Of a DNA stretch of 24,159 nucleotides, positions 2,513-18,209 are shown one piece after another. How positions within the stretch are numbered: position 1 is the first letter of the stretch; each line of letters starts with the position of its first letter. The position numbers and the translations under genes are program-made. The stretch comes from Deltaproteobacteria bacterium (GTDB lineage: Bacteria > Desulfobacterota > Syntrophobacteria > B119-G9). Location: contig QMLL01000001.1 of NCBI GenBank assembly GCA_003646715.1, forward strand, positions 1 to 24,159, written 5' to 3'. The notes beneath the pieces were generated by a model. The model was not told where the DNA came from, did not search any database, and saw nothing but the letters and a program-made list of their open reading frames with translations.

Positions 2513-2541
2513 TTGACAATGGCATCATTTGCTGGTAGTAG
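2513..2541 (+). promoter_or_regulatory. Sigma70-type promoter for the trp leader/trpB2 transcript
   Basis: TTGACA (2513-2518), a 17-nt spacer, TG at 2533-2534 and TAGTAG (2536-2541), about 35 nt upstream of the leader ATG. Confidence 0.6.
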
Positions 2542-2574
2542 TAACCGTAATCGTGGAGATAGGCGGATAGAGAT

Positions 2575-2655
2575 ATGAATACCACCTGTAGAAACTGTGA
2601 TGCAATTTCCTGTTTGTTTTGGTGGTGGCAGGCTCACATGAGCCTGCCCTCATAG
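2575..2655 (+). CDS. trpL: Trp leader peptide (attenuator peptide) MNTTCRNCDAISCLFWWWQAHMSLPS, 26 aa; not in the ORF track
   Basis: ATG 2575, three tandem TGG codons (2620-2628), TAG 2653-2655 and SD-like AGGCGG 2561-2566. It sits directly upstream of a terminator and a tryptophan synthase beta gene. Confidence 0.85.
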   Translation: MNTTCRNCDAISCLFWWWQAHMSLPS

Positions 2656-2760
2656 GCTCTATCTCTCTAAAATAGAATAAGGAGAGCCATGGGGTAGGTA
2701 AAGTCCCATGGCTCAAACTTTTTTAGATGCCGTGGGGCTTTCCTCACGGCATTTTAATTT
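2620..2760 (+). promoter_or_regulatory. Ribosome-mediated transcription attenuator of trpB2
   Basis: Mutually exclusive helices read by hand: 2627-2635/2640-2648; 2655-2660/2683-2688; 2684-2693/2705-2714; antiterminator 2700-2712/2729-2741 (13 bp, 2 G-U); terminator 2727-2737/2742-2752 plus a T-rich tail. Confidence 0.8.
2727..2760 (+). terminator. Attenuator terminator hairpin upstream of trpB2
   Basis: ATGCCGTGGGG-CTTT-CCTCACGGCAT followed by TTTAATTT, ending 26 nt before the trpB2 ATG. Confidence 0.8.
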
Positions 2761-2786
2761 GTGAAATTAAAGAAGGGAGGATTGTT

Positions 2787-4148
2787 ATGACAGACGTAAA
2801 GGTATTCCTGGATGAGAGCGAACTGCCCAGACAATGGTACAACATACTGGCAGATTTGCCCACACCAATGAAACCGCCTCTACACCCAGCTACGGGTGAA
2901 CCTATTAACCCAGAAGATCTCGCTCCAGTGTTTCCCATGAATCTTATTGAGCAGGAAGTGGCTTCGGATAGATGGATAGATATTCCGGAACCGGTGCTTG
3001 AAAAATACGCTCTTTGGAGACCGACTCCTCTGTATCGTGCAAAGAACTTTGAGAAGTTTCTCGATGCACCAGTGAAAATCTACTACAAGAACGAGGGGGT
3101 TAGTCCTCCGGGATCGCACAAGCCCAACACAGCGGTAGCTCAGGCTTATTACAACAAAGTTTTCGGAATAAAGAGAATATCCACCGAAACAGGGGCAGGG
3201 CAGTGGGGTAGCGCGCTTAGCATGGCCTGCCAGATGTTCGGTCTTCAATGCAGGGTTTTTATGGTGAGGGTAAGTTATGATCAAAAACCTTACAGACGTT
3301 TGATGATGGCAACATGGGGTGCAGAATGTGTTCCCAGTCCGAGCAATATAACAGAGGTTGGAAAAAAGATTCTCGAAGAGCATCCGGATTCTCCAGGTAG
3401 TCTGGGAATTGCCATAAGCGAGGCCATAGAAGATGCGGTGGGCGATGAGAATGCTCGTTACTCTCTGGGTAGTGTTCTCAATCATGTGCTTCTACATCAG
3501 ACCATCATAGGCCTTGAAGCTCAAAAACAGCTCGAGAAAATAGGGGAATATCCCGATGTGGTTATGGGTTGTGCCGGTGGTGGTAGTAATTTCGCAGGAA
3601 TATGTTTACCCTTTGTAAGAGATAAAATCCATGGGAAAGAAGTCTCCATTGTTGCTGCAGAACCCACATCGTGTCCAACCATGACTCGAGGACCATATGC
3701 TTATGACTTTGGCGACCTGGCAAAAACAACTCCCTTGTTGCCCATGCACACTCTTGGGCATGACTTTGTACCCCCTCCCATTCACGCTGGAGGGCTAAGA
3801 TACCACGGTATGGCTCCCATTATCAGTCATTTGTTGAAAGAAAAGCTTATTGAAGCTAGAGGCTTTAACCAGATAGATACTTTTACCGCAGGTGTTAACT
3901 GGGCAAGAACGGAAGGATTTATACCGGCACCTGAGACAAACCACGTCATTGCCGCTGTGGTTCAGGAAGCTCAAAAAGCAAAAGAAGAAGGAAAAGAAAA
4001 AGTCATCCTTTTCAACTGGAGCGGGCATGGGATTATTGATCTGGCCGCTTATGATGCCTTTTTATCAGGAAAATTGACTCAATATGAATTGCCAGAAGAA
4101 GAAATCGAAAGGGCTTTAAAATCGCTGGAAGGTCTGCCGAAACCGTAG
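2787..4148 (+). CDS. trpB2: Tryptophan synthase beta chain, stand-alone type 2 (TrpB2), 453 aa
   Basis: PLP-lysine motif GSHKPNTA plus [34 protein letters not shown] and FNWSGHG. Its length and N-terminus (PRQWYNI) fit TrpB2. The start is reassigned to ATG 2787 behind SD GGGAGG (2775-2780). No trpA is adjacent. Confidence 0.95.
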
Positions 4149-4178: not shown

Positions 4179-4457
4179 ATGATTGTAGATCTGGAAATTA
4201 GATGCCCCAAACTGGGGCATCAGGTAAAGTTTGACTACTGCGAAAAGGAGCAGATAAGTCTCCCGTGCAAAAGAATAATCAAATGCTGGCAAATTTACTT
4301 CCCGGTGGAGATTTATCTCAAGAAAAAGTTAACAGAAGAAGAGTGGAATAGGTGTTTTAACGAAAAACCCAAGGAAAAAATACTAACTTTGCTGGAATTG
4401 ATTGACGCAGCAAAGAGGAGGAAGGAGAAAAAAGGTCAGAGTAAAGATAAACTATAG
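4179..4457 (+). CDS. Small hypothetical protein with four Cys (C-x11-C-x8-C-x5-C), possibly metal-binding
   Basis: SD GGGGAGG 4162-4168, motif RCPKLGH...YC...PC...CW, a basic C-terminus and tight operon spacing. Confidence 0.7.
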   Translation: MIVDLEIRCPKLGHQVKFDYCEKEQISLPCKRIIKCWQIYFPVEIYLKKKLTEEEWNRCFNEKPKEKILTLLELIDAAKRRKEKKGQSKDKL

Positions 4458-4482: not shown

Positions 4483-5466
4483 ATGAGGAGGTCTGAAAAA
4501 TCAAACAACAGGCGTTGTCAGATTGTTATAGGTCTTGTGGTCTTCTTTTCTTTTTTATTAGCTCCAGCTTTATCTTTTGCTTATCATGAACCAGCCCTTA
4601 ATCTTGGCTTTACAACGTTTCTGGATGGGGGCCCGCCCGCAGGACCAGGATTTTATTTCTCTCAATATTTTCAATACTATAACTCCGATAAGTTAACCGA
4701 CAGCGATGGTGATGAATTGTTGCCGCCGTTCGCTGATGAGGACCTCGATGTATTTATTAGTCTTTCCCAGCTAATATATCATTCGAACCAGCCAATACTG
4801 TTTGGAGGGAAATGGGGCTTCGAGTTGATCATACCCTACGTGGGACTTGATCTGGACTATGAGGTAAACGGGCCATTTCCTGAAGATAATGGCTCAGGTT
4901 TCGGAGATATTCTTATTGGGCCTTTTATTCAGTGGGATCCGATAATGGGTAAAAAGGGGCCTATCTTCATGCATCGTTTTGAGATTTCTGTGATAGTACC
5001 AACTGGCAAATATGACGATGACAAGGAACTCAATCCAGGGAGCAACTTTTTTTCAATTAACCCTTACTGGTCTGCGACTCTTTTTATCACCCCGAGATGG
5101 ACTCTTTCCGGGAGATTTCATTATCTCTGGAATGCAAAAAACGATGATCCCAACAGGCAGTTTGCGGGAGCGGATGATACACAGGCGGGACAAGCATTTC
5201 ATGTGAATTTTACCTCTGCTTATGAGGTAGTACCAAATAGATTCAGAGTAGGTATAAATGGTTATTATTTGAAGCAGTTTACAGATACCGAGGTGGACGG
5301 TCACGATATTTCAGATAGCAAAGAGCAGGTTTTAGGACTCGGTCCTGGCTTTGTGATCCACTTCTCAAGAGATATACATTTGGTTTTCAACGCATATTTT
5401 GAAACTCAGGTCGAAAACCGACCAAAAGGAGAACGGTATAATCTTAGGTTTTTGTATCATTTCTAG
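4483..5466 (+). CDS. SphA/COG4313 (phenol MetA-pathway-like) outer-membrane beta-barrel channel
   Basis: Signal peptide, LNLGFTTFLDG-PP-GPGFY, GFGDILIGP-IQW, PTGKYD, GINGYYLKQ-TD, VLGLGPG and a terminal aromatic residue (LYHF). SD GAGGAGG upstream. Confidence 0.85.
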   Translation: MRRSEKSNNRRCQIVIGLVVFFSFLLAPALSFAYHEPALNLGFTTFLDGGPPAGPGFYFSQYFQYYNSDKLTDSDGDELLPPFADEDLDVFISLSQLIYHSNQPILFGGKWGFELIIPYVGLDLDYEVNGPFPEDNGSGFGDILIGPFIQWDPIMGKKGPIFMHRFEISVIVPTGKYDDDKELNPGSNFFSINPYWSATLFITPRWTLSGRFHYLWNAKNDDPNRQFAGADDTQAGQAFHVNFTSAYEVVPNRFRVGINGYYLKQFTDTEVDGHDISDSKEQVLGLGPGFVIHFSRDIHLVFNAYFETQVENRPKGERYNLRFLYHF

Positions 5467-9263: not shown

Positions 9264-9896
9264 ATGAAAATTATCATAATTGATAACTATGATTCCTTTA
9301 CGTACAATCTTTTCCAGCTATTTACTGTCACGGGCGCGGATGTGAAGGTATACAGGAATGATTGTATATCTCTTGATATTCTTTCTCATGAGCCCCCTGA
9401 TGCAATCATAATATCTCCAGGTCCCAAGGATCCGTCAGATTCGGGAATTAGTAAGGATGTGGTCAGGTATTTTGGCAAAACTGTACCCGTCCTCGGCGTA
9501 TGCTTAGGGATGCAGGTAATAAACGAGGTATTTGGTGGGGAAACGATTCTTGCTCCAAGGCCTGTGCATGGAGAAAAAGACCGAATTTTTCATAGCGGAA
9601 AAGGACTTTTTCAATCGATTCCATCTCCTTTTTTCGCAGCCAGATATCACTCTCTGGTTGTAAGCATTGCGAGTGATGACTTGATGATAACTGCCAGAAA
9701 TAGCGAGAATATTATAATGGCGATTGAGCACCTGAAATATCCCATTGTTGGCGTTCAATTTCATCCCGAATCTTTTATGACAGAATATGGTGAGAAAATG
9801 GCAGTGAATTTTCTTAAACAGGTAAAATATCATGGAAGTTCTTCCCAGGATAAAAAACATAATTCAGCTGGAGCCTTCTTTTTGGGAGCGAGATGA
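9264..9896 (+). CDS. pabA: Aminodeoxychorismate/anthranilate synthase component II (type I glutamine amidotransferase)
   Basis: IDNYDSFTYN, ISPGPKDP, GVCLG (catalytic Cys), ARYHSL and QFHPES (His-x-Glu). It precedes pabB/pabC. Confidence 0.9.
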   Translation: MKIIIIDNYDSFTYNLFQLFTVTGADVKVYRNDCISLDILSHEPPDAIIISPGPKDPSDSGISKDVVRYFGKTVPVLGVCLGMQVINEVFGGETILAPRPVHGEKDRIFHSGKGLFQSIPSPFFAARYHSLVVSIASDDLMITARNSENIIMAIEHLKYPIVGVQFHPESFMTEYGEKMAVNFLKQVKYHGSSSQDKKHNSAGAFFLGAR

Positions 9897-11250
9897 AAAA
9901 ATAGAAGATATCTTTACACCGCTCGCTTCAATACCCCACTCAGTGCTTTTGCTTAGTGGTGGCGACGGGGATTGTTCCAGGTATTCCTTTGCTGGCATTG
10001 AACCTTTTCTGATTGTACAATGTTGGAGAGATCTAGTAGAAATAAAAAATAAATCCGGGAAAACGGTACGACTCAAGGGAAATCCATTTGACATAGTGCA
10101 ATCTATCCTCGATCATCTCAAGGTTGATACGCAAGGTAGTGATGCACCATTTTGTGCCGGTGCCATGGGCTACTGGGGTTATGACCTTCGGTATCAACTG
10201 GAAAGACTTCCAGATATTGGTAATGATGATCTCTTGATACCGGACCTCTACCTTGTTTTCCCGAGCGTCATAATCACGCTGGATAGAGATAACAACCACT
10301 TCGTTTTGAATCTTGTCGAAACAGACATTGATAGTTTTGAACAGGATTCCGTGTCTGATAAGGTTGAAAGGTTAATAAAGTGGAGCAGGTACTGGCATAG
10401 CCATTTGTTCAATCTTCCTGAGCCCGTTTCAAAAGGAAAATATGATACAAATTTTACGAAAGAAGAGTATATTGAGGCCATCGATAAGACGAGAGATTAC
10501 ATTAGACACGGACATATCTATCAGGTAAATATTTCTCAACGCTTTACGTTTCCTTTTGAAGGTTCTGACTATTTGCTTTTCAGGAAACTTTTTCGTCTGA
10601 ACCCGGCTTCTTTTTTTGCATACATGAACTGTGGGGATTTTACGGTACTTTCCACATCCCCGGAACGTTTCATTTATCGCAACGGAGATTACATTGAAAC
10701 ACGTCCGATAAAAGGAACGAGACCTAGGGGAAAAACTCCCGACGAAGACGAAAAACTTCAAAGGGAACTTATTGAAAGTTCGAAAGAAGACGCTGAGTTA
10801 TCGATGATTGTTGATCTTCTCAGAAATGACTTGGGTAAGGTTTGTTTGCCTGGAACTGTAAAAGTAAAAGAACACAAGAGGATAGAAGCTTACCAGAACG
10901 TTTTTCATCTTGTTTCAATCGTGGAAGGGCGACTCCCGGAGCACTGCAGACACATGGATATACTTAAAGCAGTATTTCCGGGCGGATCCATTACAGGATG
11001 TCCGAAAGTGAGGGCAATGGAAATTATAGAGGAGCTGGAAACGGTAAAGCGTAATATCTACACAGGGTCTATAGGGTACGTTGGTTTAAATGGAACCATG
11101 GACCTCAACATAGCTATAAGGACAGCGATAAGGAAAGGGGACAAGCTCTATCTGTCGGTAGGTGGAGGTATTGTATATGGTTCAGAACCGGAAGCGGAAT
11201 ACATGGAAACAATTCACAAAGGTGAGACCTTCTTACAATTGCTGTCCTAG
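9832..11250 (+). CDS. pabB: Aminodeoxychorismate synthase component I (chorismate-binding enzyme)
   Basis: GHIYQVN, SPERF, TRPIKGTRPRG, AELSMIVDL-RNDLG, FPGGSITGCPK-RAMEII and LNIAIRT. Assigned as PabB rather than TrpE because a class IV aminotransferase follows it. Confidence 0.88.
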   Translation: MEVLPRIKNIIQLEPSFWERDEKIEDIFTPLASIPHSVLLLSGGDGDCSRYSFAGIEPFLIVQCWRDLVEIKNKSGKTVRLKGNPFDIVQSILDHLKVDTQGSDAPFCAGAMGYWGYDLRYQLERLPDIGNDDLLIPDLYLVFPSVIITLDRDNNHFVLNLVETDIDSFEQDSVSDKVERLIKWSRYWHSHLFNLPEPVSKGKYDTNFTKEEYIEAIDKTRDYIRHGHIYQVNISQRFTFPFEGSDYLLFRKLFRLNPASFFAYMNCGDFTVLSTSPERFIYRNGDYIETRPIKGTRPRGKTPDEDEKLQRELIESSKEDAELSMIVDLLRNDLGKVCLPGTVKVKEHKRIEAYQNVFHLVSIVEGRLPEHCRHMDILKAVFPGGSITGCPKVRAMEIIEELETVKRNIYTGSIGYVGLNGTMDLNIAIRTAIRKGDKLYLSVGGGIVYGSEPEAEYMETIHKGETFLQLLS

Positions 11251-11292
11251 ACGGTTGGGCATTAGTCTAATGTTAAAAGGATCACAAGAACT

Positions 11293-12147
11293 GTGGAAGA
11301 ATACATATATGTGAACAACACCCTTGTCCCGATCTCTGAGGCCAGAATTTCTCCGCTCGATCGTGGTTTTCTCTACGGAGACGGCCTTTTTGAAACTATT
11401 CGTGTGAACCGGGGACGCCCCCTTTTTCTGAAAGATCACCTAGAAAGAATAGAGAGTTCCTGCTCTGCTTTTAACATTTGTCTTGACGTAGATCCGATAG
11501 AAGACTGGTATGAAAAAATTGAAAGAGTGATTGCAGCAAATAACCTGGGTGATGGGCTGGCGGCAGTTAAAATCCTGGTAACGAGGGGAACCGATTTTCC
11601 TGAACCGAGACTTCCTAAATCTCAGAAACCTACAGTGATAATCTATGCCCGTTCGTATAATCCTCCTTCCAGTGAGAAATACAATAAAGGCTTGAAATTG
11701 ATTACCTTTCCCCACAGAAGACACACAAAGCTGGCAGATTATAAAAGTCTTAATTATCTTTTTTATCTTGCTGCAAAAGAATGGGCGGTAGGGAAGGGGG
11801 GCGATGAAGCCCTTATACTTAATGGTGACGGTACGGTATCCGAGGGATCCACCACAAACATTTTTTACGTGAAGGATGGTAAAGTATATAAGCCTATTTC
11901 CGCACATTATCTTAGAGGAATCATGGAAAAGCAAGTGATAAAGTTTCTTGAGACGGCAGGCGTGGAGGTGAAAGAAAAAGAAACGTATATTGAAGGTTTG
12001 CTGGAAGCTGATGAACTATTTCTCACCAATTCCCTGGTTGAGGTTATACCTGCATACTCGATTGACGGAAAGGTTTTGTCGAGAAAAGGAAATACAATAA
12101 GGGAACTTGTTGAAATGGACTGGGGAAGGATTGCAAATTGTCTGTAA
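11293..12147 (+). CDS. pabC: Class IV aminotransferase, probable 4-amino-4-deoxychorismate lyase
   Basis: DRGFLYGDGLFETIR, the PLP-Lys context YKSLNY, EGSTTNIF, L-GIM and LFLTNS. Directly downstream of pabB. Confidence 0.8.
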   Translation: MEEYIYVNNTLVPISEARISPLDRGFLYGDGLFETIRVNRGRPLFLKDHLERIESSCSAFNICLDVDPIEDWYEKIERVIAANNLGDGLAAVKILVTRGTDFPEPRLPKSQKPTVIIYARSYNPPSSEKYNKGLKLITFPHRRHTKLADYKSLNYLFYLAAKEWAVGKGGDEALILNGDGTVSEGSTTNIFYVKDGKVYKPISAHYLRGIMEKQVIKFLETAGVEVKEKETYIEGLLEADELFLTNSLVEVIPAYSIDGKVLSRKGNTIRELVEMDWGRIANCL

Positions 12148-12223
12148 CTCACTGTTCTGCCCCAGTATTCATCACAATCCTGGAGAGGGTTCTTAAAAGT
12201 GGCGGCTATGACCAATAATGCTC

Positions 12224-12289
12224 GATTCCTGCCTCCGCAGGAATGACAGAGAGTAACGTCAACGTCATTCCCGCGAACGCGGGAATCCA
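12224..12289. repeat. Pair of REP/dRS3-like palindromic repeats in inverted orientation
   Basis: GATTCCTGCCTCCGCAGGAATGAC (12224-12247) and GTCATTCCCGCGAACGCGGGAATCCA (12264-12289) match the widespread GTCATTCCCGCG..GCGGGAATCC repeat type. They lie between convergent genes. Confidence 0.8.
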
Positions 12290-12378
12290 AGCCCCTAGAC
12301 TGAAGTACGAACTCAGCGCAAGCTTTCACGTCGGTCGTTCTAAAGGGCATTTCGTATAAAGCTGGTCCGTTGGCGCTT

Positions 12379-13134
12379 CTAAAGGCCTCTTTTCTTCTTA
12401 CGTATTTTCCTTGCTTCTCTCTTCCAGGCAGGTCCCTTCCTTCTTTTGCGGTCCCTTTCTTTCTTTCTTGCGACATCAGGATCTCTCTCAAGATCAAGGA
12501 AAAAGGAACCCGGCAACGCTTCCGGAACCGCTTCAATTTCCTTAGGCTTTTTCAGTTTTTTCTCTTTTGTTTTCTTTACTTCTCTTTCAGGCAGCGGAGG
12601 GCCCGAAATAAATCTAGAAGGGATTTCCTCTGCCAGGAACATATTTTCACCATGAGCTCTGAAGATTATTCCTTCCAGGAATGCTTCTTCGGCGTTGATC
12701 TCCAGGAGAAGAGGAGACTTATCTCTTCTTTTTCCAATTCTTAGAGCGAGTTCTTTGGTCCTGCACAGGGGAAGAAAGGGTCTTCCGGCAGCTTTGAGGC
12801 CATGATTATATATGTGATAGCAGGCTTTGAGCCTTGCGGCATAAAAAAGCGTTCTTGGTGGTTGCTCAACCGGGTAATAAGGTTTTTTGATTGAATCGTT
12901 CAAGACGATTTTTTTGCCTTCTAATCGATAAGGGGGATCAAATCCGAGAAGAATCAAGTCTTTCAAGTGCGATTCTCTCACGTAGCTCCAGCCGTCCTCT
13001 TCCTTTACGGCCCACAACAATTCTTTAATGGAAATAGAACCGTCGCCATCCAGGAATATTCCAAATTCATCCGGGCTGTGGCAAAGCACGTAAGAGAGGA
13101 ATTTTAGAAGTCTTTTAGCTTTCTTTTTGTCCAT
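12379..13134 (-). CDS. kptA: RNA 2'-phosphotransferase (KptA/Tpt1)-like protein with degenerate catalytic motifs and a Lys/Arg-rich C-terminal tail
   Basis: KFLSYVL-H-P-EFGI-LD-DG, PP-TL-Y, GLKA-GR, ALRIGKRR and LLLEINA follow the KptA layout. The start is ATG 13134, with an alternative TTG at 13161. Confidence 0.75.
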   Translation of the reverse strand: MDKKKAKRLLKFLSYVLCHSPDEFGIFLDGDGSISIKELLWAVKEEDGWSYVRESHLKDLILLGFDPPYRLEGKKIVLNDSIKKPYYPVEQPPRTLFYAARLKACYHIYNHGLKAAGRPFLPLCRTKELALRIGKRRDKSPLLLEINAEEAFLEGIIFRAHGENMFLAEEIPSRFISGPPLPEREVKKTKEKKLKKPKEIEAVPEALPGSFFLDLERDPDVARKKERDRKRRKGPAWKREARKIRKKKRGL

Positions 13135-13138
13135 GAGT

Positions 13139-14026
13139 TTAGTCGTTTTTATAATCTGCAAGTATTTCTATGATCGGTGGTATAACTGTTCTTGCTATAT
13201 CAGCCCGCGACCCACCACCCAACACGACCTCTAGTTTACCACCGCAAAGTTCAAGCGAAAGCTCAACCATGAGCCTTGCAATGTTATTGTAGCATTCACC
13301 TGTTAAACCAAGATCTCCATAGTCACCTCGGTGAGTGTCAAAACCAAAGTACCAGAAAATCAGATCCGGCTTGAAGTTTCGTACGGCATCTGGAAAAACA
13401 GAGCAAACCTTATCAAAATATATTTCATTCTGACTTCTATCGTCTTTTTCCGTTCGCCCCCAGCCAAACCAACCGCTTCTCACAGCGACGTCAATTTTGG
13501 TGCCATCAGGGGATTTGTAGTCGTTATAACACATGCAAACGTGAAGCACGTCAGGATCATCTTTAACCAGGTCTCTTGTGCCGTCGCCGTGGTGTGCATC
13601 GGTGTCGAGAATAGCGAATTTCTTAACACCATAAATTTCTCGCAGTTTTGTAATGGTGATCACTACGTCGTTAAAACAGCAGTAACCGCCAAAATAGTCT
13701 CTCCCGGAGTGATGTCCACCGGCTCCTATAAAAGCGAACGCATTATCGATTTCCCCCGTCCATATTTTTTCTCCACCGAGAACAACACCTCCAGCCGAAT
13801 GCCACGCTGTGCTGCAAAGGTGGTCCGCCTGTACTCCAAGTATCAGTTCAGGCGTGTGTACTTTTAGAATCCACTCCTCTTCAAGGGGTGGAGATTCAAA
13901 CATTACTACATTTTCTCTCTGAAGAAGGTGCTCTATCGCCTCGGGAAAATCTTCAAGTCTGGTACCCTGAGTCAGGTAACTTCGCCTACTAAAGCTCGGG
14001 TGGTAAAAAATGCCGGTTTTTCTCAT
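13139..14026 (-). CDS. Histone deacetylase (HDAC/AcuC) fold Zn-dependent hydrolase, atypical
   Basis: GGHH, GYCCFND, DTDAHHGDG and GFDTH-GD are present. The usual EGGY motif is replaced by LGGGS. Confidence 0.88.
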   Translation of the reverse strand: MRKTGIFYHPSFSRRSYLTQGTRLEDFPEAIEHLLQRENVVMFESPPLEEEWILKVHTPELILGVQADHLCSTAWHSAGGVVLGGEKIWTGEIDNAFAFIGAGGHHSGRDYFGGYCCFNDVVITITKLREIYGVKKFAILDTDAHHGDGTRDLVKDDPDVLHVCMCYNDYKSPDGTKIDVAVRSGWFGWGRTEKDDRSQNEIYFDKVCSVFPDAVRNFKPDLIFWYFGFDTHRGDYGDLGLTGECYNNIARLMVELSLELCGGKLEVVLGGGSRADIARTVIPPIIEILADYKND

Positions 14027-14177
14027 TAATCCGCTCCATGGTTATTGAGTCCGCCGAAATATTCATAACCCTCATAATATTATAGAAATATAAATATTGC
14101 CCTTTTACATTTCCTATGCTATCTAAAAAAATATGTGATATCAAGCGCCTTCAACCCCCAGAAGGAGTTATTCGCAA

Positions 14178-14684
14178 ATGAAAGATTACTGGCAACCTTA
14201 TCTTGGCGGCGTAGCCCTCGGTTTTCTTCTTTTCTTTTCTTTTCTAATCTGCGGTAAGAGCGTAGGAGGCTCATCTTTTCTCACGCGACTGGCCGCGTAC
14301 TTTGTTCATATCGTTGCTCCATCTCATATAGAAAACTCAGCCTATTTTGGTCGATATTTTGCCGGCGCTAAAACACCTTTAAACTACTGGCTGGCCTATC
14401 TGGGTTATGGCACGTTTTTGGGAGGACTTGCATCTGCCTTTGTTCACGGCCGTTTAAAAATATCGATAGATAAAGGACCGAAGGTATCTCCCAAAGGCAG
14501 GCTGGCGCTGGCCATGTTTGGGGGTATCTTTGTCGGTTTCGCGTCAAGACTTGGGCTTGGTTGTACCAGCGGGCAGGGTTTAATTGGTGCCTCAATGCTG
14601 TCTGTTGGTTCATGGGTTTTCCTTTTTTCTGTGTTTTTAGGTGGATACGCAATTGCATATAGAGTCAGGGAAGGGTGGCTGTAA
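14178..14684 (+). CDS. YeeE/YedE-family sulfur-compound transporter, half-size subunit 1
   Basis: YW-PYLGG-ALG, four to five hydrophobic segments, GF-SRL-LGCTSGQ with the conserved Cys, and SD AAGGAG. Confidence 0.88.
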   Translation: MKDYWQPYLGGVALGFLLFFSFLICGKSVGGSSFLTRLAAYFVHIVAPSHIENSAYFGRYFAGAKTPLNYWLAYLGYGTFLGGLASAFVHGRLKISIDKGPKVSPKGRLALAMFGGIFVGFASRLGLGCTSGQGLIGASMLSVGSWVFLFSVFLGGYAIAYRVREGWL

Positions 14685-15292
14685 TGGGACCTGTAATAAA
14701 ATTAGCCGGGATGATAAATTCACCGGTAGACTTCTTTCTGGCTGTCTGTTTTGGTTTTTTCTTTGGATTTATCCTGGAAAGTTCGGGCCTTGCCAATTGC
14801 AGGAAGATAGCCGGAGTGTTTTACTTTTATGATGTTACCGTGGTTCAGGTAATGTTTACGGCAATTGTCACGGCAGTTCTTCTTCTCTATGGCACTTCAG
14901 CAATGGGTGTGCTGGATCTTTCACTTCTTTACGTACCCGATACATACATTTATTCTTATATACTTGCAGGCTTTATCCTCGGTGCAGGGATGGTTATGGG
15001 AGGCTACTGACCGGCCACATCTTTAACTGCCACGGCTGGCGGTCGGATCGACGGACTGTTCTTCGTAGTTGGAATAATGATCGGTTCCTGGCTTTTCTCA
15101 GAGCTTTTTACAATCATAAAACCAATCTATAAAGCGGGATCTCTGGGTAAATACTTTCTTTACCAATTATTCAATCTTCCGATCGGAGTTACGATTTTTA
15201 TTGTAACTCTGGCCGGACTCTGCTTTTTGTTCCTGTTTACTTTCCTTGAAACTCTTTTCGGAAAAAAGTTTGGAGGCAGCCGTGATTTATAA
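14684..15292 (+). CDS. YeeE/YedE-family transporter, half-size subunit 2, predicted selenoprotein (Sec109, TGA 15008-15010), 202 aa
   Basis: The ATG overlaps the upstream TAA (TAATG). ORFs 14675-15010 and 15077-15292 are in the same frame with only one TGA between them. The read-through sequence GMVMGGY-U-PATSL matches the family GxCPG(T/S) motif, and a SECIS-like hairpin follows. Confidence 0.85.
15008..15046 (+). promoter_or_regulatory. Bacterial SECIS element (YeeE-like gene)
   Basis: After the TGA: stem ACTGCCA (15026-15032)/TGGCGGT (15037-15043), loop CGGC with G at +24, and a possible lower helix CCGG/TCGG. Confidence 0.75.
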
Positions 15293-15677
15293 AAGGATAC
15301 TGATAGTTCTCATCTTAATAGCTTTGATTGTGGCAGGCTCACTGGCACTTTTGAAAAACAAAACTGTTTTGAGTGCACAATACAAGCGGTGTATGCAACT
15401 AACTAGCGAAGCGGATCAACTTTTCCTGAACAAAAAATACAAGGATGCCATAGAAAAATACAGGCAAGCTCTAATGATTGATCCGAAAAACCAGAAACTA
15501 TGGCAAAAGTTAATAGAAAGCATAAGAAAAGAAGCTTACTTGCAGGTTTCCGCTGCAAAACCCGCTATGATACCGCAGGTGACGAAACCTGAAACCAAAC
15601 CTGTTCAACCACAGGTCATAACACCTCCAGCACCATCTGAACCTTCCTTTGTGATTGAGGAAGACGAAGGCTGCTAA
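15282..15677 (+). CDS. Membrane-anchored protein with TPR-like repeat, Pro-rich linker and acidic C-terminus ending in Cys (-FVIEEDEGC), 131 aa
   Basis: GTG 15282 behind SD GGAGG (15272-15276), overlapping the upstream gene end. It has an N-terminal TM helix, ADQLF..KKYKDAIEKYRQALMIDP (TPR pattern) and a P/Q/T/V/K-rich linker. Confidence 0.8.
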   Translation: MIYKRILIVLILIALIVAGSLALLKNKTVLSAQYKRCMQLTSEADQLFLNKKYKDAIEKYRQALMIDPKNQKLWQKLIESIRKEAYLQVSAAKPAMIPQVTKPETKPVQPQVITPPAPSEPSFVIEEDEGC

Positions 15678-15683
15678 TCTTCC

Positions 15684-15715
15684 GTGGGAGACGTTCACAC
15701 GTCTCCCGTTCTTTG
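15684..15715 (+). terminator. Intrinsic terminator closing the yeeE-yeeE-TPR operon
   Basis: GGGAGACG-TTCACA-CGTCTCCC (15686-15707) followed by GTTCTTTG, directly after the stop codon. Confidence 0.7.
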
Positions 15716-15963
15716 TCTTCAGTTTTTCTCATGCATTGATTGGAAGGGGACCTTCCTGACTCTATCTATTCCTGTTTGATTGTTGACCAAAAGACCCTCA
15801 AAAAGCGTGAATTTCCCTAGATCCTAAATTTAACATAATATATCTTATCAGACGTTAATGATATGGAAAAAGATCCTTATGCCAACAAGATGCTTGAAAT
15901 AATTGGCCAGGATGACATTGTCTGGTAGTCCCTATTTACATGTCTGATCTCTAAAAAATCCTC

Positions 15964-15991
15964 TTGACAATTCTGACAGGATTGTTAAATA
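15964..15991 (+). promoter_or_regulatory. Possible sigma70 promoter for tRNA-Gly
   Basis: TTGACA 15964-15969, with a TGT-TAAATA -10-like box at a 16-nt spacer. The -10 match is imperfect. Confidence 0.4.
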
Positions 15992-16008
15992 GAATATAAA
16001 AACAGCGA

Positions 16009-16083
<75 letters not shown>

Positions 16084-16095
16084 AAAAAGAACAGC

Positions 16096-16118
16096 AAGCG
16101 GCACATGCCGCTTTTTTT
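16096..16118 (+). terminator. Intrinsic terminator after tRNA-Gly
   Basis: AAGCGGC-ACAT-GCCGCTT followed by a T-run. Confidence 0.85.
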
Positions 16119-16144
16119 GTTTTCGCAGTTAAGAGTTTGCTATC

Positions 16145-17158
16145 ATGAGTTCACTCAACATTCAGACCACGCGCCCTAAATCCGTAACGTCTTTGCTCAC
16201 CAAGTTTCTGGAAGTTTTTGATCCAAAAGACCGTGTTCTGATTACTATTGACCCAGACCCAGATTCGCTTTCATCGGCAATGGCCGTCAAAAGAATCCTC
16301 TGGCACAAGGTTCAAAGCACAACCATAGCTATAATCAGACCTATTACCAGATTAAATAATATAACCATGGTTCGATTGCTTAAAATACCCGTGGTTGATA
16401 AAAAAGACATTAATCCATCAGAGTTCGATCGACATGTGATCGTTGATGGCCAGCCGGCTCACTTTGAGGAATTTCAAAATATTAATTTTAACGTTGTCAT
16501 TGACCATCATCCTCTCAAAGAGGAACCTCAAGGAGTAGATTTTGCTGATATTCGCCCAACCTACGGAGCTACTGCTACAATACTCACTGAATACCTAAAA
16601 GCGGCAAAAATAAAACCTTCAAAAACACTCGCAACTGCTTTAATTTACGGTATAAAAACGGATACACATGACTTTCAGGGTAAGGTTGTTGAGGAAGATG
16701 TTAAGGCTTTCAGATACCTTTTCCCCTTCGCTTTTATAAATACCCTGAGAAAAATCGAAATATCCGACATGGAGCTTAAAGATCTCAAGTTTTTTAAACG
16801 TGCACTGGAAAACAAACGTGTTTCTAGAAAGAGGATCTTTACGTACCTTGAACGCGTACCCTCCCATGACATCTGTGTGTTGGTGGCAGATTTTCTGATG
16901 AAGATTCATGATATCAGATGGGTAGTAGTTTCAGGTCTTACAAATGATAAGCTGGTGGTCGTGATACGAAACGATGGAATACGCAAAAACGCCGGTCAAC
17001 TTGCCGAGAAGGCTTTCGGGTCGATAGGCAGTGCTGGCGGTCACAAGGGTATGGCTAGAGCCGAAATACCGCTCGAGAATCTGGAACAATATCTGAGGAA
17101 ATTTAACGCAAACACAATTCAGAGATTCATCCGGGAAAGGTTCTTGAAAAGAACTTAG
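16145..17158 (+). CDS. DHH/DHHA1-family phosphoesterase (NrnA/GdpP-like)
   Basis: [30 protein letters not shown] and the DHHA1 motif GSAGGH-GMARA. Confidence 0.9.
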
Positions 17159-17177
17159 TCCCCTCCCCTTTCATACT

Positions 17178-17648
17178 ATGTCAAAAAAAAGAAACAATTA
17201 TAAAAAAGTCGAAATATTTACTGACGGTGCCTGCCAGGGTAATCCCGGACCAGGCGGATGGGCGGCTATCCTCAAGTATAAAAACGTGGAAAAGGAGCTT
17301 TCCGGGGCAGAACCTTTTACCACAAATAATAGAATGGAACTGACCGCTGTTATCGAAGCATTGAAAGCGCTAAAAGAACCCTGCAAGGTAACCATATGTA
17401 CCGATTCCCAGTACGTACAAAAAGGCATCTCCGAATGGCTTCCAAAATGGAAACAACGTAAGTGGCTCACCAGTACCAAGAATAAGGTCAAAAATGTGGA
17501 TTTGTGGAAAATTCTGGACAGAGAAGCATCGAAGCATCATGTTACCTGGAAATGGGTGCGAGGACACAGCGGAATCCCCCAGAATGAAAGATGTGATTAC
17601 CTTGCAAAGATGGCCATAGAAAACATGAAAAAGAAATGGGATAAGTAG
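17178..17648 (+). CDS. rnhA: Ribonuclease HI
   Basis: [39 protein letters not shown] and WV-GHSG---NE-CD. Confidence 0.97.
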
Positions 17649-17655
17649 ATAACCT

Positions 17656-17681
17656 TGGATTCTCGCTTTCGCAGGAATAAC
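17656..17681. repeat. Degenerate third copy of the REP/dRS3-like repeat
   Basis: TGGATTCTCGCTTTCGCAGGAATAAC resembles the reverse-complement form TGGATTCCCGC..TCGCGGGAATGAC. It lies 7 nt after the rnhA stop. Confidence 0.65.
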
Positions 17682-17683
17682 AA

Positions 17684-17721
17684 AGAGGTTGCCGATCTTG
17701 CTTCCCGGCAACCTCTATATT
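17684..17721. terminator. Bidirectional terminator-like hairpin between convergent rnhA and mvhD
   Basis: Perfect 11-bp stem AGAGGTTGCCG (17684-17694)/CGGCAACCTCT (17706-17716) with T-rich tails on both strands. Confidence 0.7.
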
Positions 17722-17780
17722 TAGCATACGCCGGTGGCCGCGTTTGGCCCCGCCTTTCCAGTTTCTTGCTTTCGGTAGTC

Positions 17781-18209
17781 TTATGCCGCTTTTTTCTCTT
17801 TCAGTGGCAACGGCCCGAGTTCTTTAATTTTCTCCACAAACTCGGTAATACTTTCAGCAAATCTGGGAGCTTCAGCTGAAGAAATCCATCGTAGGTGAAG
17901 TCGTTCTGGTTCAATGCCTGTGAACTGCAAAAGCTCCTTTAAGAAAGCCACCCTTTTGGTTGTCATATAATTACCATACAGGTAATGGCAGTCTCCGATG
18001 TGTCACCCACCGATAAAAACGCCATCGACCCCTTTCTGAAACGCCTTTAGCACATAATGAGGGGAAACGCTTGCGGAGCAGGGAACTCTTACTGTTCTTA
18101 CATTGGGTGGGTACTGAAGACGGCTTACTCCGGCGAGATCAGCTGCAGAATAAGCACACCAGTTGCAGAGAAACGCGACGATCCGGGGTTCATAATTGTC
18201 TTTGACCAT
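17781..18209 (-). CDS. mvhD: MvhD/FlpD-family [2Fe-2S] hydrogenase iron-sulfur subunit, predicted selenoprotein (Sec69), 142 aa
   Basis: FLCNWCAYSAADLAG...RVPCS...GG-U-HIGDCHY..GN...ERL...WISSAE. ORFs 18003-18209 and 17781-17966 are in frame across one TGA (18003-18005) at the conserved GCH-GDCHY Cys position, and a SECIS-like hairpin follows. Confidence 0.92.
17970..18005 (-). promoter_or_regulatory. Bacterial SECIS element (mvhD)
   Basis: On the minus strand after the TGA: stem ATTACC (+17..+22)/GGTAAT (+28..+33) and loop TGTAT with G at +24. Confidence 0.7.

Follow-up and report, generated by a model that had tools for sequence, protein, structure and literature searches.

In the his leader of Salmonella and Escherichia coli, six RNA segments (A to F) pair as A:B, C:D and E:F, the last of which is the terminator, and these pairings alternate with B:C and D:E (PMC4046918). 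Bacteroid-trp (RF01692) is a cis-regulatory motif of Bacteroidetes (PMC2864571), and comparative genomics predicted actinobacterial trp attenuators with leader peptides containing UGG runs, at more than one trp transcription unit per genome (PMC1262725). Our literature search found no described Trp attenuator on trpB2 or in Desulfobacterota. Here we analyzed a stretch of 24,159 nt (the window; contig QMLL01000001.1, positions 1 to 24,159 of the forward strand, assembly GCA_003646715.1) from a Deltaproteobacteria bacterium with a 69%-complete metagenome-assembled genome; the DNA runs holding the stretch were marine sediment and hydrothermal-vent metagenomes, and the run searches listed no RNA run with it. 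An initial annotation, made from the sequence alone, had proposed that trpB2 in this window is controlled by a leader peptide with three consecutive Trp residues (WWW) and by an attenuator built as a relay of several helices. Orthologue conservation, covariation and constrained folding all backed this core claim. It is highly likely that the WWW leader and its helix chain form a working attenuator that senses charged tRNA-Trp in front of trpB2, and the gene would very probably be switched on only when charged tRNA-Trp is scarce. The element belongs to an uncatalogued RNA family with a textbook mechanism, found in Desulfobacteria (sulfate-reducing) and Syntrophales.

The leader open reading frame (ORF) was present as annotated, with 26 codons including TGG-TGG-TGG, and a base-by-base check together with folding recovered every helix that had been named. 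The elements from the promoter to the controlled gene, with six RNA segments numbered in order, are as follows.

2513 to 2541, forward strand: putative promoter, with the -35 element TTGACA at 2513-2518, a 14-nt gap, TG at 2533-2534 and the -10 element TAGTAG at 2536-2541
2575 to 2655, forward strand: leader ORF, with ATG at 2575, 26 codons, peptide MNTTCRNCDAISCLFWWWQAHMSLPS and stop codon TAG at 2653-2655
2620 to 2628, forward strand: tandem Trp codons TGG-TGG-TGG (the regulatory codons), read from the sequence
2627 to 2648, forward strand: hairpin P1 (segments 1:2), 2627-2635/2640-2648, from folding and covariation
2642 to 2699, forward strand: composite anti-A helix (segments 2:3), 2642-2649/2692-2699, 2651-2653/2689-2691 and 2655-2660/2683-2688
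2684 to 2724, forward strand: hairpin A (segments 3:4), 2684-2694/2704-2714, 11 bp, followed by AAAC and U6 (2719-2724)
2700 to 2741, forward strand: antiterminator (segments 4:5), 2700-2712/2729-2741, 13 bp including 2 G-U pairs
2726 to 2760, forward strand: terminator B (segments 5:6), 2726-2737/2742-2753, with the U-rich tail UUUUAAUUU
2773 to 4148, forward strand: trpB2, with the Shine-Dalgarno sequence AAGGGAGG at 2773-2780, ATG at 2787 and the stop at 4148, 453 aa

The region 2545-2790 had a minimum free energy (MFE) of -95.4 kcal/mol, compared with -66.0 ± 4.8 kcal/mol for dinucleotide shuffles (z = -6.1, 0 of 200 shuffles). A short upstream ORF (uORF) with tandem codons for the end product (TGG three times) is followed, between leader ORF and gene, by a predicted intrinsic terminator (B and its U-tract), and this terminator and the 4:5 antiterminator are mutually exclusive. 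A consensus scan listed terminator-like sites at 2684-2714 (tail AAACTTTTTT) and 2725-2754 (tail TAATTTGTGA), which are A and B. Hairpin A serves as the relay hairpin and is possibly also a weak first terminator. The helix chain of the initial annotation was real, but it lacked the sensor P1 and the outer anti-A helix (2642-2649/2692-2699). The 5′ arm of P1 begins within the last TGG, and the hairpin can be extended by 2622-2625/2650-2653. The pairing that had been called 3:4 (2655-2660/2683-2688, 6 bp) is the inner third of the composite anti-A helix. At fixed alignment columns it was not significant (64.5% paired, 78 of 500 shuffles), because the spacer varies; folds of the individual sequences did contain it, as the inner part of the anti-A helix, which is variable. 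In the same spacer, CUCUCU at 2663-2668 is complementary to AGGGAG (2773-2778) of the trpB2 Shine-Dalgarno sequence, and the two were paired in the full-length MFE fold; this complement is imperfect in a relative of the same genus.

Folding of the alternative states reproduced exactly, for the window, the ribosome logic that had been proposed. When the stop codon was masked, the MFE fold consisted of A and the terminator at every length. When the stall was masked instead (the footprint, to +13, of a ribosome whose A site holds a Trp codon), the fold contained anti-A and the antiterminator and no terminator, so that the two masks gave opposite folds. Under the stall mask, before segment 6 is made, the state with anti-A and 4:5 reached -51.5 kcal/mol vs. 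-38.2 kcal/mol for the A state. The anti-A helix of the window had an energy of -30.1 kcal/mol (z = -4.7 against shuffled upstream arms, 0 of 200), and over the 27 leaders described below its z averaged -2.1, with every value negative. With segment 1 masked, segment 2 and the spacer paired with the A 5′ arm in 27 of 27 leaders. The stall mask at the end of segment 5 gave anti-A with 4:5 in 20 of 23 leaders, and under the stop-codon mask A formed in all 27 and A with the terminator in 23 of 23. In the window, spacer 2649-2660 alone can hold the A 5′ arm while P1 still stands.

The masking of the anti-A arm by a ribosome at the stop codon held for this genome but not in the same form throughout the family. 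Of 26 leaders, 13 had their stop in the loop of P1 or at the base that opens its 3′ arm, and 13 had it 3-27 nt behind P1; in every case, segment 2 is covered when a ribosome stands at the stop. The P1 loop of the window is 2 nt shorter than in two relatives of the same genus, and TAG 2653 is therefore in frame.

The upstream regions of trpB2 were searched in 29 loci from relatives and in 78 from a public genome collection. As expected, leaders with Trp codons were found before the orthologues, 27 of them with the same architecture, from Desulfobacteria and Syntrophales. The order is WWW codons TGGTGGTGG, P1, a CCCAC-like tail, a variable spacer and hairpin A, then B in 23 leaders. The four other leaders had no B, and a U-tract directly after A made A the sole terminator; 2:3 is therefore the only possible antiterminator in these four-segment relatives. 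In 26 of the 27 leaders, the WWW codons belonged to a short ORF that opened with an in-frame start codon and had its stop nearby. Peptide N-termini were variable even within a genus, and the conserved part of the peptide comprised WWW and the residues encoded by P1. At the RNA level, conservation was strong from the Trp codons onward, with WWW and then P1 invariant, and TGGTGGTGG was (near-)invariant across the 23 aligned leaders.

The consensus arms were GGCRGR... and ...CTGCC for P1, whose 5′ arm started within the last TGG in all aligned leaders, GAGCCGTGGG... and ...CCCAYGGCTC for hairpin A, and GCCRYGGG... and ...CCCRYGGC, followed by a U-tract, for hairpin B (23 leaders). In the 23-sequence alignment, 96.8% of the cells of P1, A and B were paired, compared with 40-51% when the pairing was slid, and compensatory changes were observed in 10 pairs; none of 500 shuffles reached the observed values. 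P1 was paired in 95% of cells, with compensatory changes in 3 of its 8 pairs, hairpin A in 96% (3 compensatory pairs) and terminator B in 99% (4 compensatory pairs). The alternative helices were also retained: the outer 2:3 core (CTGCCCAC with GTGGGYRAGG) had pairing potential in 94.7% of cells and the 4:5 antiterminator in 91.3% (93% for the two together), vs. 33-51% when slid. The same leader was present in four independent assemblies from other samples, with no indel and with its structure intact. Assemblies from other samples also contained the population variants 2556 G>A, 2635 C>T, 2681 G>A and an additional T after 2757, in the U-tract; 2635 C>T converts a G-C pair of P1 to G-U, so pairing is kept, and changes the leader peptide by H21Y.

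Two further observations concern loci that depart from this plan. The leader upstream of trpB2 at locus L009 was otherwise intact, with TAG in place of the first TGG, which closes the Trp frame just ahead of the other two TGG codons; decay or a sequencing error may be the cause. One genus had no leader (L011, L018 and L022) and instead carried, upstream of trpB2, a long imperfect inverted repeat whose two sides consist of GAGATGTG-like and CACATC-like units, respectively. The initial annotation had also suggested Cys sensitivity from three Cys codons in the leader. This did not hold across the family: leaders contained 0-3 Cys codons at no fixed position, one leader of the same genus had none, and several of the codons were simply TGC inside the CTGCC of P1.

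The following sequence of events would account for these features. Transcription would start approximately 25 nt upstream of the 26-codon leader ORF, whose translation we infer. When Trp is scarce, the ribosome would stall on TGG-TGG-TGG (2620-2628), and its footprint would melt P1. The freed P1 3′ arm and the spacer (2642-2660) would pair with the A 5′ arm (2683-2699), leaving the A 3′ arm (2700-2712) free to pair with the B 5′ arm (2729-2741). B would then be blocked, and RNA polymerase would continue into trpB2 and its two downstream genes. When Trp is plentiful, the ribosome would reach the stop codon at 2653-2655, within the anti-A arm, and cover this arm; A and then B would form, and transcription would end near 2755-2760, with possibly a weaker site after A near 2720.

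Several observations weigh against this attenuator. The alternative pairings are conserved and hardly compensated, with double changes in two pairs and a covariation score that was matched by 15 of 500 shuffles. In 5 of 23 leaders, independent covariation of B left a central A-C mismatch in the 4:5 helix. At equilibrium, 2:3 alone beat A in only 6 of 27 leaders, and four-segment leaders always favored the terminator. Equilibrium folding thus fails to predict antitermination there, and co-transcriptional (kinetic) folding must be assumed, as in E. coli. The untranslated RNA of the window was near balance between its two states (-57.4 vs. -56.0 kcal/mol), and the U-tract of hairpin A is set off by 4 nt. 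The leader has a weak Shine-Dalgarno sequence, GGAG, located 16 nt upstream, and the natural variant 2556 G>A abolishes it. For the promoter, the picture was mixed. The TTGACA at 2513-2518 is a perfect -35 element, a TG precedes the -10 element, and the blocks TTGACA and TTGCTGGTA were kept in two genomes of the same genus; the -10 element TAGTAG is poor, and a consensus scan of the sequence did not list a promoter at 2513-2541.

Of the other explanations considered, the nearest one retains the attenuator in a simpler form. It holds that only four segments operate, with P1, 2:3 and A as the terminator, and that B is an unregulated back-up or duplicate whose 4:5 complementarity is a by-product of duplication. 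Such an arrangement would agree with the four relatives that have only A and a U-tract, with the U-rich tract that follows A in 10 of the 23 six-segment leaders, and with the core GCCRYGGG/CCCRYGGC common to A and B; in five leaders, B covaries without a matching change in the 3′ arm of A. It is nevertheless unlikely, since an unregulated strong terminator before trpB2 would block expression in every condition, and 4:5 pairing potential was kept in 91% of cells. A carries no U-tract in the leaders of Syntrophales, which leaves only B as the regulated terminator there, and in the window the U-tract of A is displaced by those 4 nt, whereas 4:5 is a 13-bp helix.

Conservation at the RNA level, in a leader whose peptide is not conserved outside WWW, would also be compatible with a switch that does not depend on translation, such as a riboswitch or a protein or tRNA site (TRAP-like or T-box-like), with the ORF being incidental. 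We consider this very unlikely, given the short ORF, with its in-frame start and its stop close by, around the WWW codons of nearly all leaders (26 of 27), and given that the start of P1 is always inside the last TGG. A T-box leader (RF00230) was rejected, as it gave no Rfam match in the window or in 2400-2900; more generally, no leader family was found by Rfam in the window, in 2400-2900 at E up to 10, or in four related leader loci. Trp leaders controlled by TRAP, of the Bacillus type, contain 9-11 (G/U)AG repeats spaced by 2-3 nt and go together with a gene for TRAP (PF02081). This type was rejected as well: there was no chain of such repeats, with no two (G/U)AG triplets in register in 2520-2790, and no PF02081 gene was found in the 69%-complete genome. 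An arrest peptide like TnaC, sensing free tryptophan and stalling at its own stop codon, is the least credible of the explanations and extremely improbable. The Pro-containing tails (SLPS, SVCP, VCPP) that stand a few residues after WWW in several leaders would fit it, but it is the conserved CUGCCC of P1 that encodes these residues, and half of the leaders end without reaching them. A gene that synthesizes Trp, or a trpE operon with a related leader, would not sensibly be induced by Trp, and because intrinsic terminators are present, a Rho-dependent logic is not called for.

The range of the attenuator family was examined with a covariance model built from the 27 leaders, from WWW through hairpin A. 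In the same genome the model had only two significant places: the element in the window, at 82.4 bits, and the trp-operon leader, aligned end to end at 40.1 bits. This operon, trpEGDCFBA, is located on contig C4 at 11534-18173, and its WWW leader of 26 codons at C4:11325-11405 (region C4:11280-11533, corresponding to L152:50-304). Behind this leader stand two GC-rich hairpins in tandem, both with a U-tract, and the 3′ arm of the first has a perfect 8-bp complement (4:5) in the 5′ arm of the second (z = -6.6). The extra helix layer, which had been proposed for the trpB2 leader, is not new in kind: the Salmonella his leader has six segments, and the trp operon of this genome has a related WWW leader with two terminators.

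Across the class, the covariance model matched in 79 of 122 genomes and in 47 of 67 high-quality genomes. Hits in the top tier (50-90 bits) look like leaders of the trpB2 type, with approximately 17 places coinciding with sites known just before trpB2. Of the weaker hits, at 31-46 bits, 18 were retrieved and examined; they included the following loci.

5 loci: before a trpE operon
3 loci (L196, L200, L202): before DAHP synthase and then trpE
at least 4 loci by Pfam (L185, L191, L194, L197): before iorA-like genes (POR_N and TPP_enzyme_C, some with Fer4), with a fifth, L195, outside the Pfam set
1 locus (L190): before an ABC permease
2 loci (L188, L189): before the COG4313 channel

Trp-related genes (trpE, DAHP synthase, iorA-like, ABC permease) followed 14 of the 18 weaker hits, which had a uORF containing WW; no such uORF was found in the other four (L188, L189, L199 and L201). 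At L185, L191, L194, L195 and L197 the leader peptides had WWW (WW in one) and ended in ...GVRSAHR/Q or in ...VKPVHR/...VRPVHR. The iorA-like genes behind L185, L191, L194 and L197 encode proteins of approximately 590 aa with POR_N and TPP_enzyme_C, two of them also with Fer4, which suggests that indolepyruvate:ferredoxin oxidoreductase is under Trp attenuation. In another genus of the class (L188, L189 and L201), a leader-like element with a strong promoter, P1, hairpin A and a U-tract retained a single TGG with TGA immediately after it; in L188 and L189 it precedes the channel gene.

When the class was searched with a strict WWW-P1 pattern, all leader-like matches were located 150-200 nt before trpB2. 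Strict matches away from trpB2 look like chance, as the sequence downstream of them had no further part of the leader motif. Of these 11 matches, the two examined in detail, L120 and L121, lay inside a long open frame read as CbiQ-like.

The product of the trpB2 gene in the window scored 747 bits with NF009057 (cut-off 366) and 670 bits with TIGR01415 (cut-off 519), and only 147 bits with the TrpB1 model TIGR00263. The description of this trpB2 as stand-alone was partly right. The gene is apart from the TrpB1-TrpA pair, a separate one on contig C4, but it is the first gene of a small conserved operon and is not strictly alone. Two genes lie behind it.

4179 to 4457, forward strand: gene for a 92-aa protein with 4 Cys, without a Pfam or NCBIfam match
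4483 to 5466, forward strand: gene for a COG4313/Phenol_MetA_deg outer-membrane channel, assigned by Pfam

The consensus scan listed no terminator-like site on the forward strand between trpB2, the 92-aa gene and the channel gene, and both genes are probably within the transcript controlled by the attenuator. The 92-aa gene stood behind trpB2 in more than 70 loci, some of which had no leader, and the channel did so in 17 other loci. The 92-aa family corresponds to unannotated Atlas clusters with approximately 1,000 members, mostly from Thermodesulfobacteriota. Elsewhere in the window, a row of three genes at 9264-12147 encodes a GATase, a chorismate-binding enzyme and an aminotransferase of class IV. 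The chorismate-binding enzyme scored just above the cut-off of the PabB model TIGR00553 and below the cut-offs of the TrpE models, and the row resembles a pabA-pabB-pabC cluster more than another anthranilate synthase.

What TrpB2 does physiologically is a matter of debate. Induction of TrpB2 under Trp starvation in Desulfobacteria and Syntrophales, together with a conserved 92-aa protein and a channel for hydrophobic compounds, would be consistent with making or salvaging tryptophan. A wider interpretation is tentative, and rather doubtful when its parts are taken jointly. The attenuator would be a double lock, in which the two tandem hairpins are both real terminators and a single stall disarms the pair through the helix relay; in this genome, where the shorter P1 loop would have moved the stop codon into the anti-A arm, termination would need a ribosome parked on that codon, and read-through would be the default of untranslated RNA, contrary to superattenuation in E. 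coli; and the RNA family would define a Trp-starvation regulon of sulfate reducers. If all this were true, the regulon would consist of trpB2 with the 92-aa Cys protein and the COG4313 channel, trpE operons, DAHP synthase, iorA-like genes and a transporter, and it would point to indole or indolepyruvate salvage routes. The mechanism of the attenuator itself is textbook, and the main value of the trpB2 leader lies in regulatory evidence on the role of TrpB2 and in a marker of a Trp-starvation regulon. The RNA family could enter RNA family databases and could help in annotating genes that respond to Trp in sulfate reducers and syntrophs that are uncultured.

Among known systems, neither RF00513 (Trp_leader) nor RF01692 (Bacteroid-trp) matched the window at the gathering score, positions 2400-2900 at E up to 10, or the related leaders. 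Bacteroid-trp is likewise a Trp-related leader motif outside Proteobacteria, and it differs in phylum and sequence. The actinobacterial attenuators are similar in that a GC-rich terminator and antiterminator share complementary triples; they differ in lineage and sequence, and the gene called trpB2 there is the second trpB in a trpB2A operon, not a member of the TIGR01415 family (PMC1262725). With trpL of E. coli and Salmonella (RF00513), the trpB2 leader has in common an ORF with tandem Trp codons, a predicted stall that prevents the first hairpin and leads to an antiterminator excluding the intrinsic terminator, and a dependence on coupled transcription and translation. Unlike trpL, with which there is no similarity in sequence or by covariance model, the leader has three Trp codons instead of two, six segments and two terminator-like hairpins instead of four segments, a distribution in Desulfobacteria and Syntrophales, and the trpB2 operon as its target, with a related leader also before trpEGDCFBA.

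The his leader provides the closest architecture, although not by homology: P1, A and B alternate in a chain with 2:3 and 4:5. The his leader senses His via seven codons, whereas the intermediate hairpin here is terminator-like in many members and the untranslated RNA of the window has no clear default to termination. In both systems, one ribosome stall would be relayed via an intermediate hairpin to the distal terminator.

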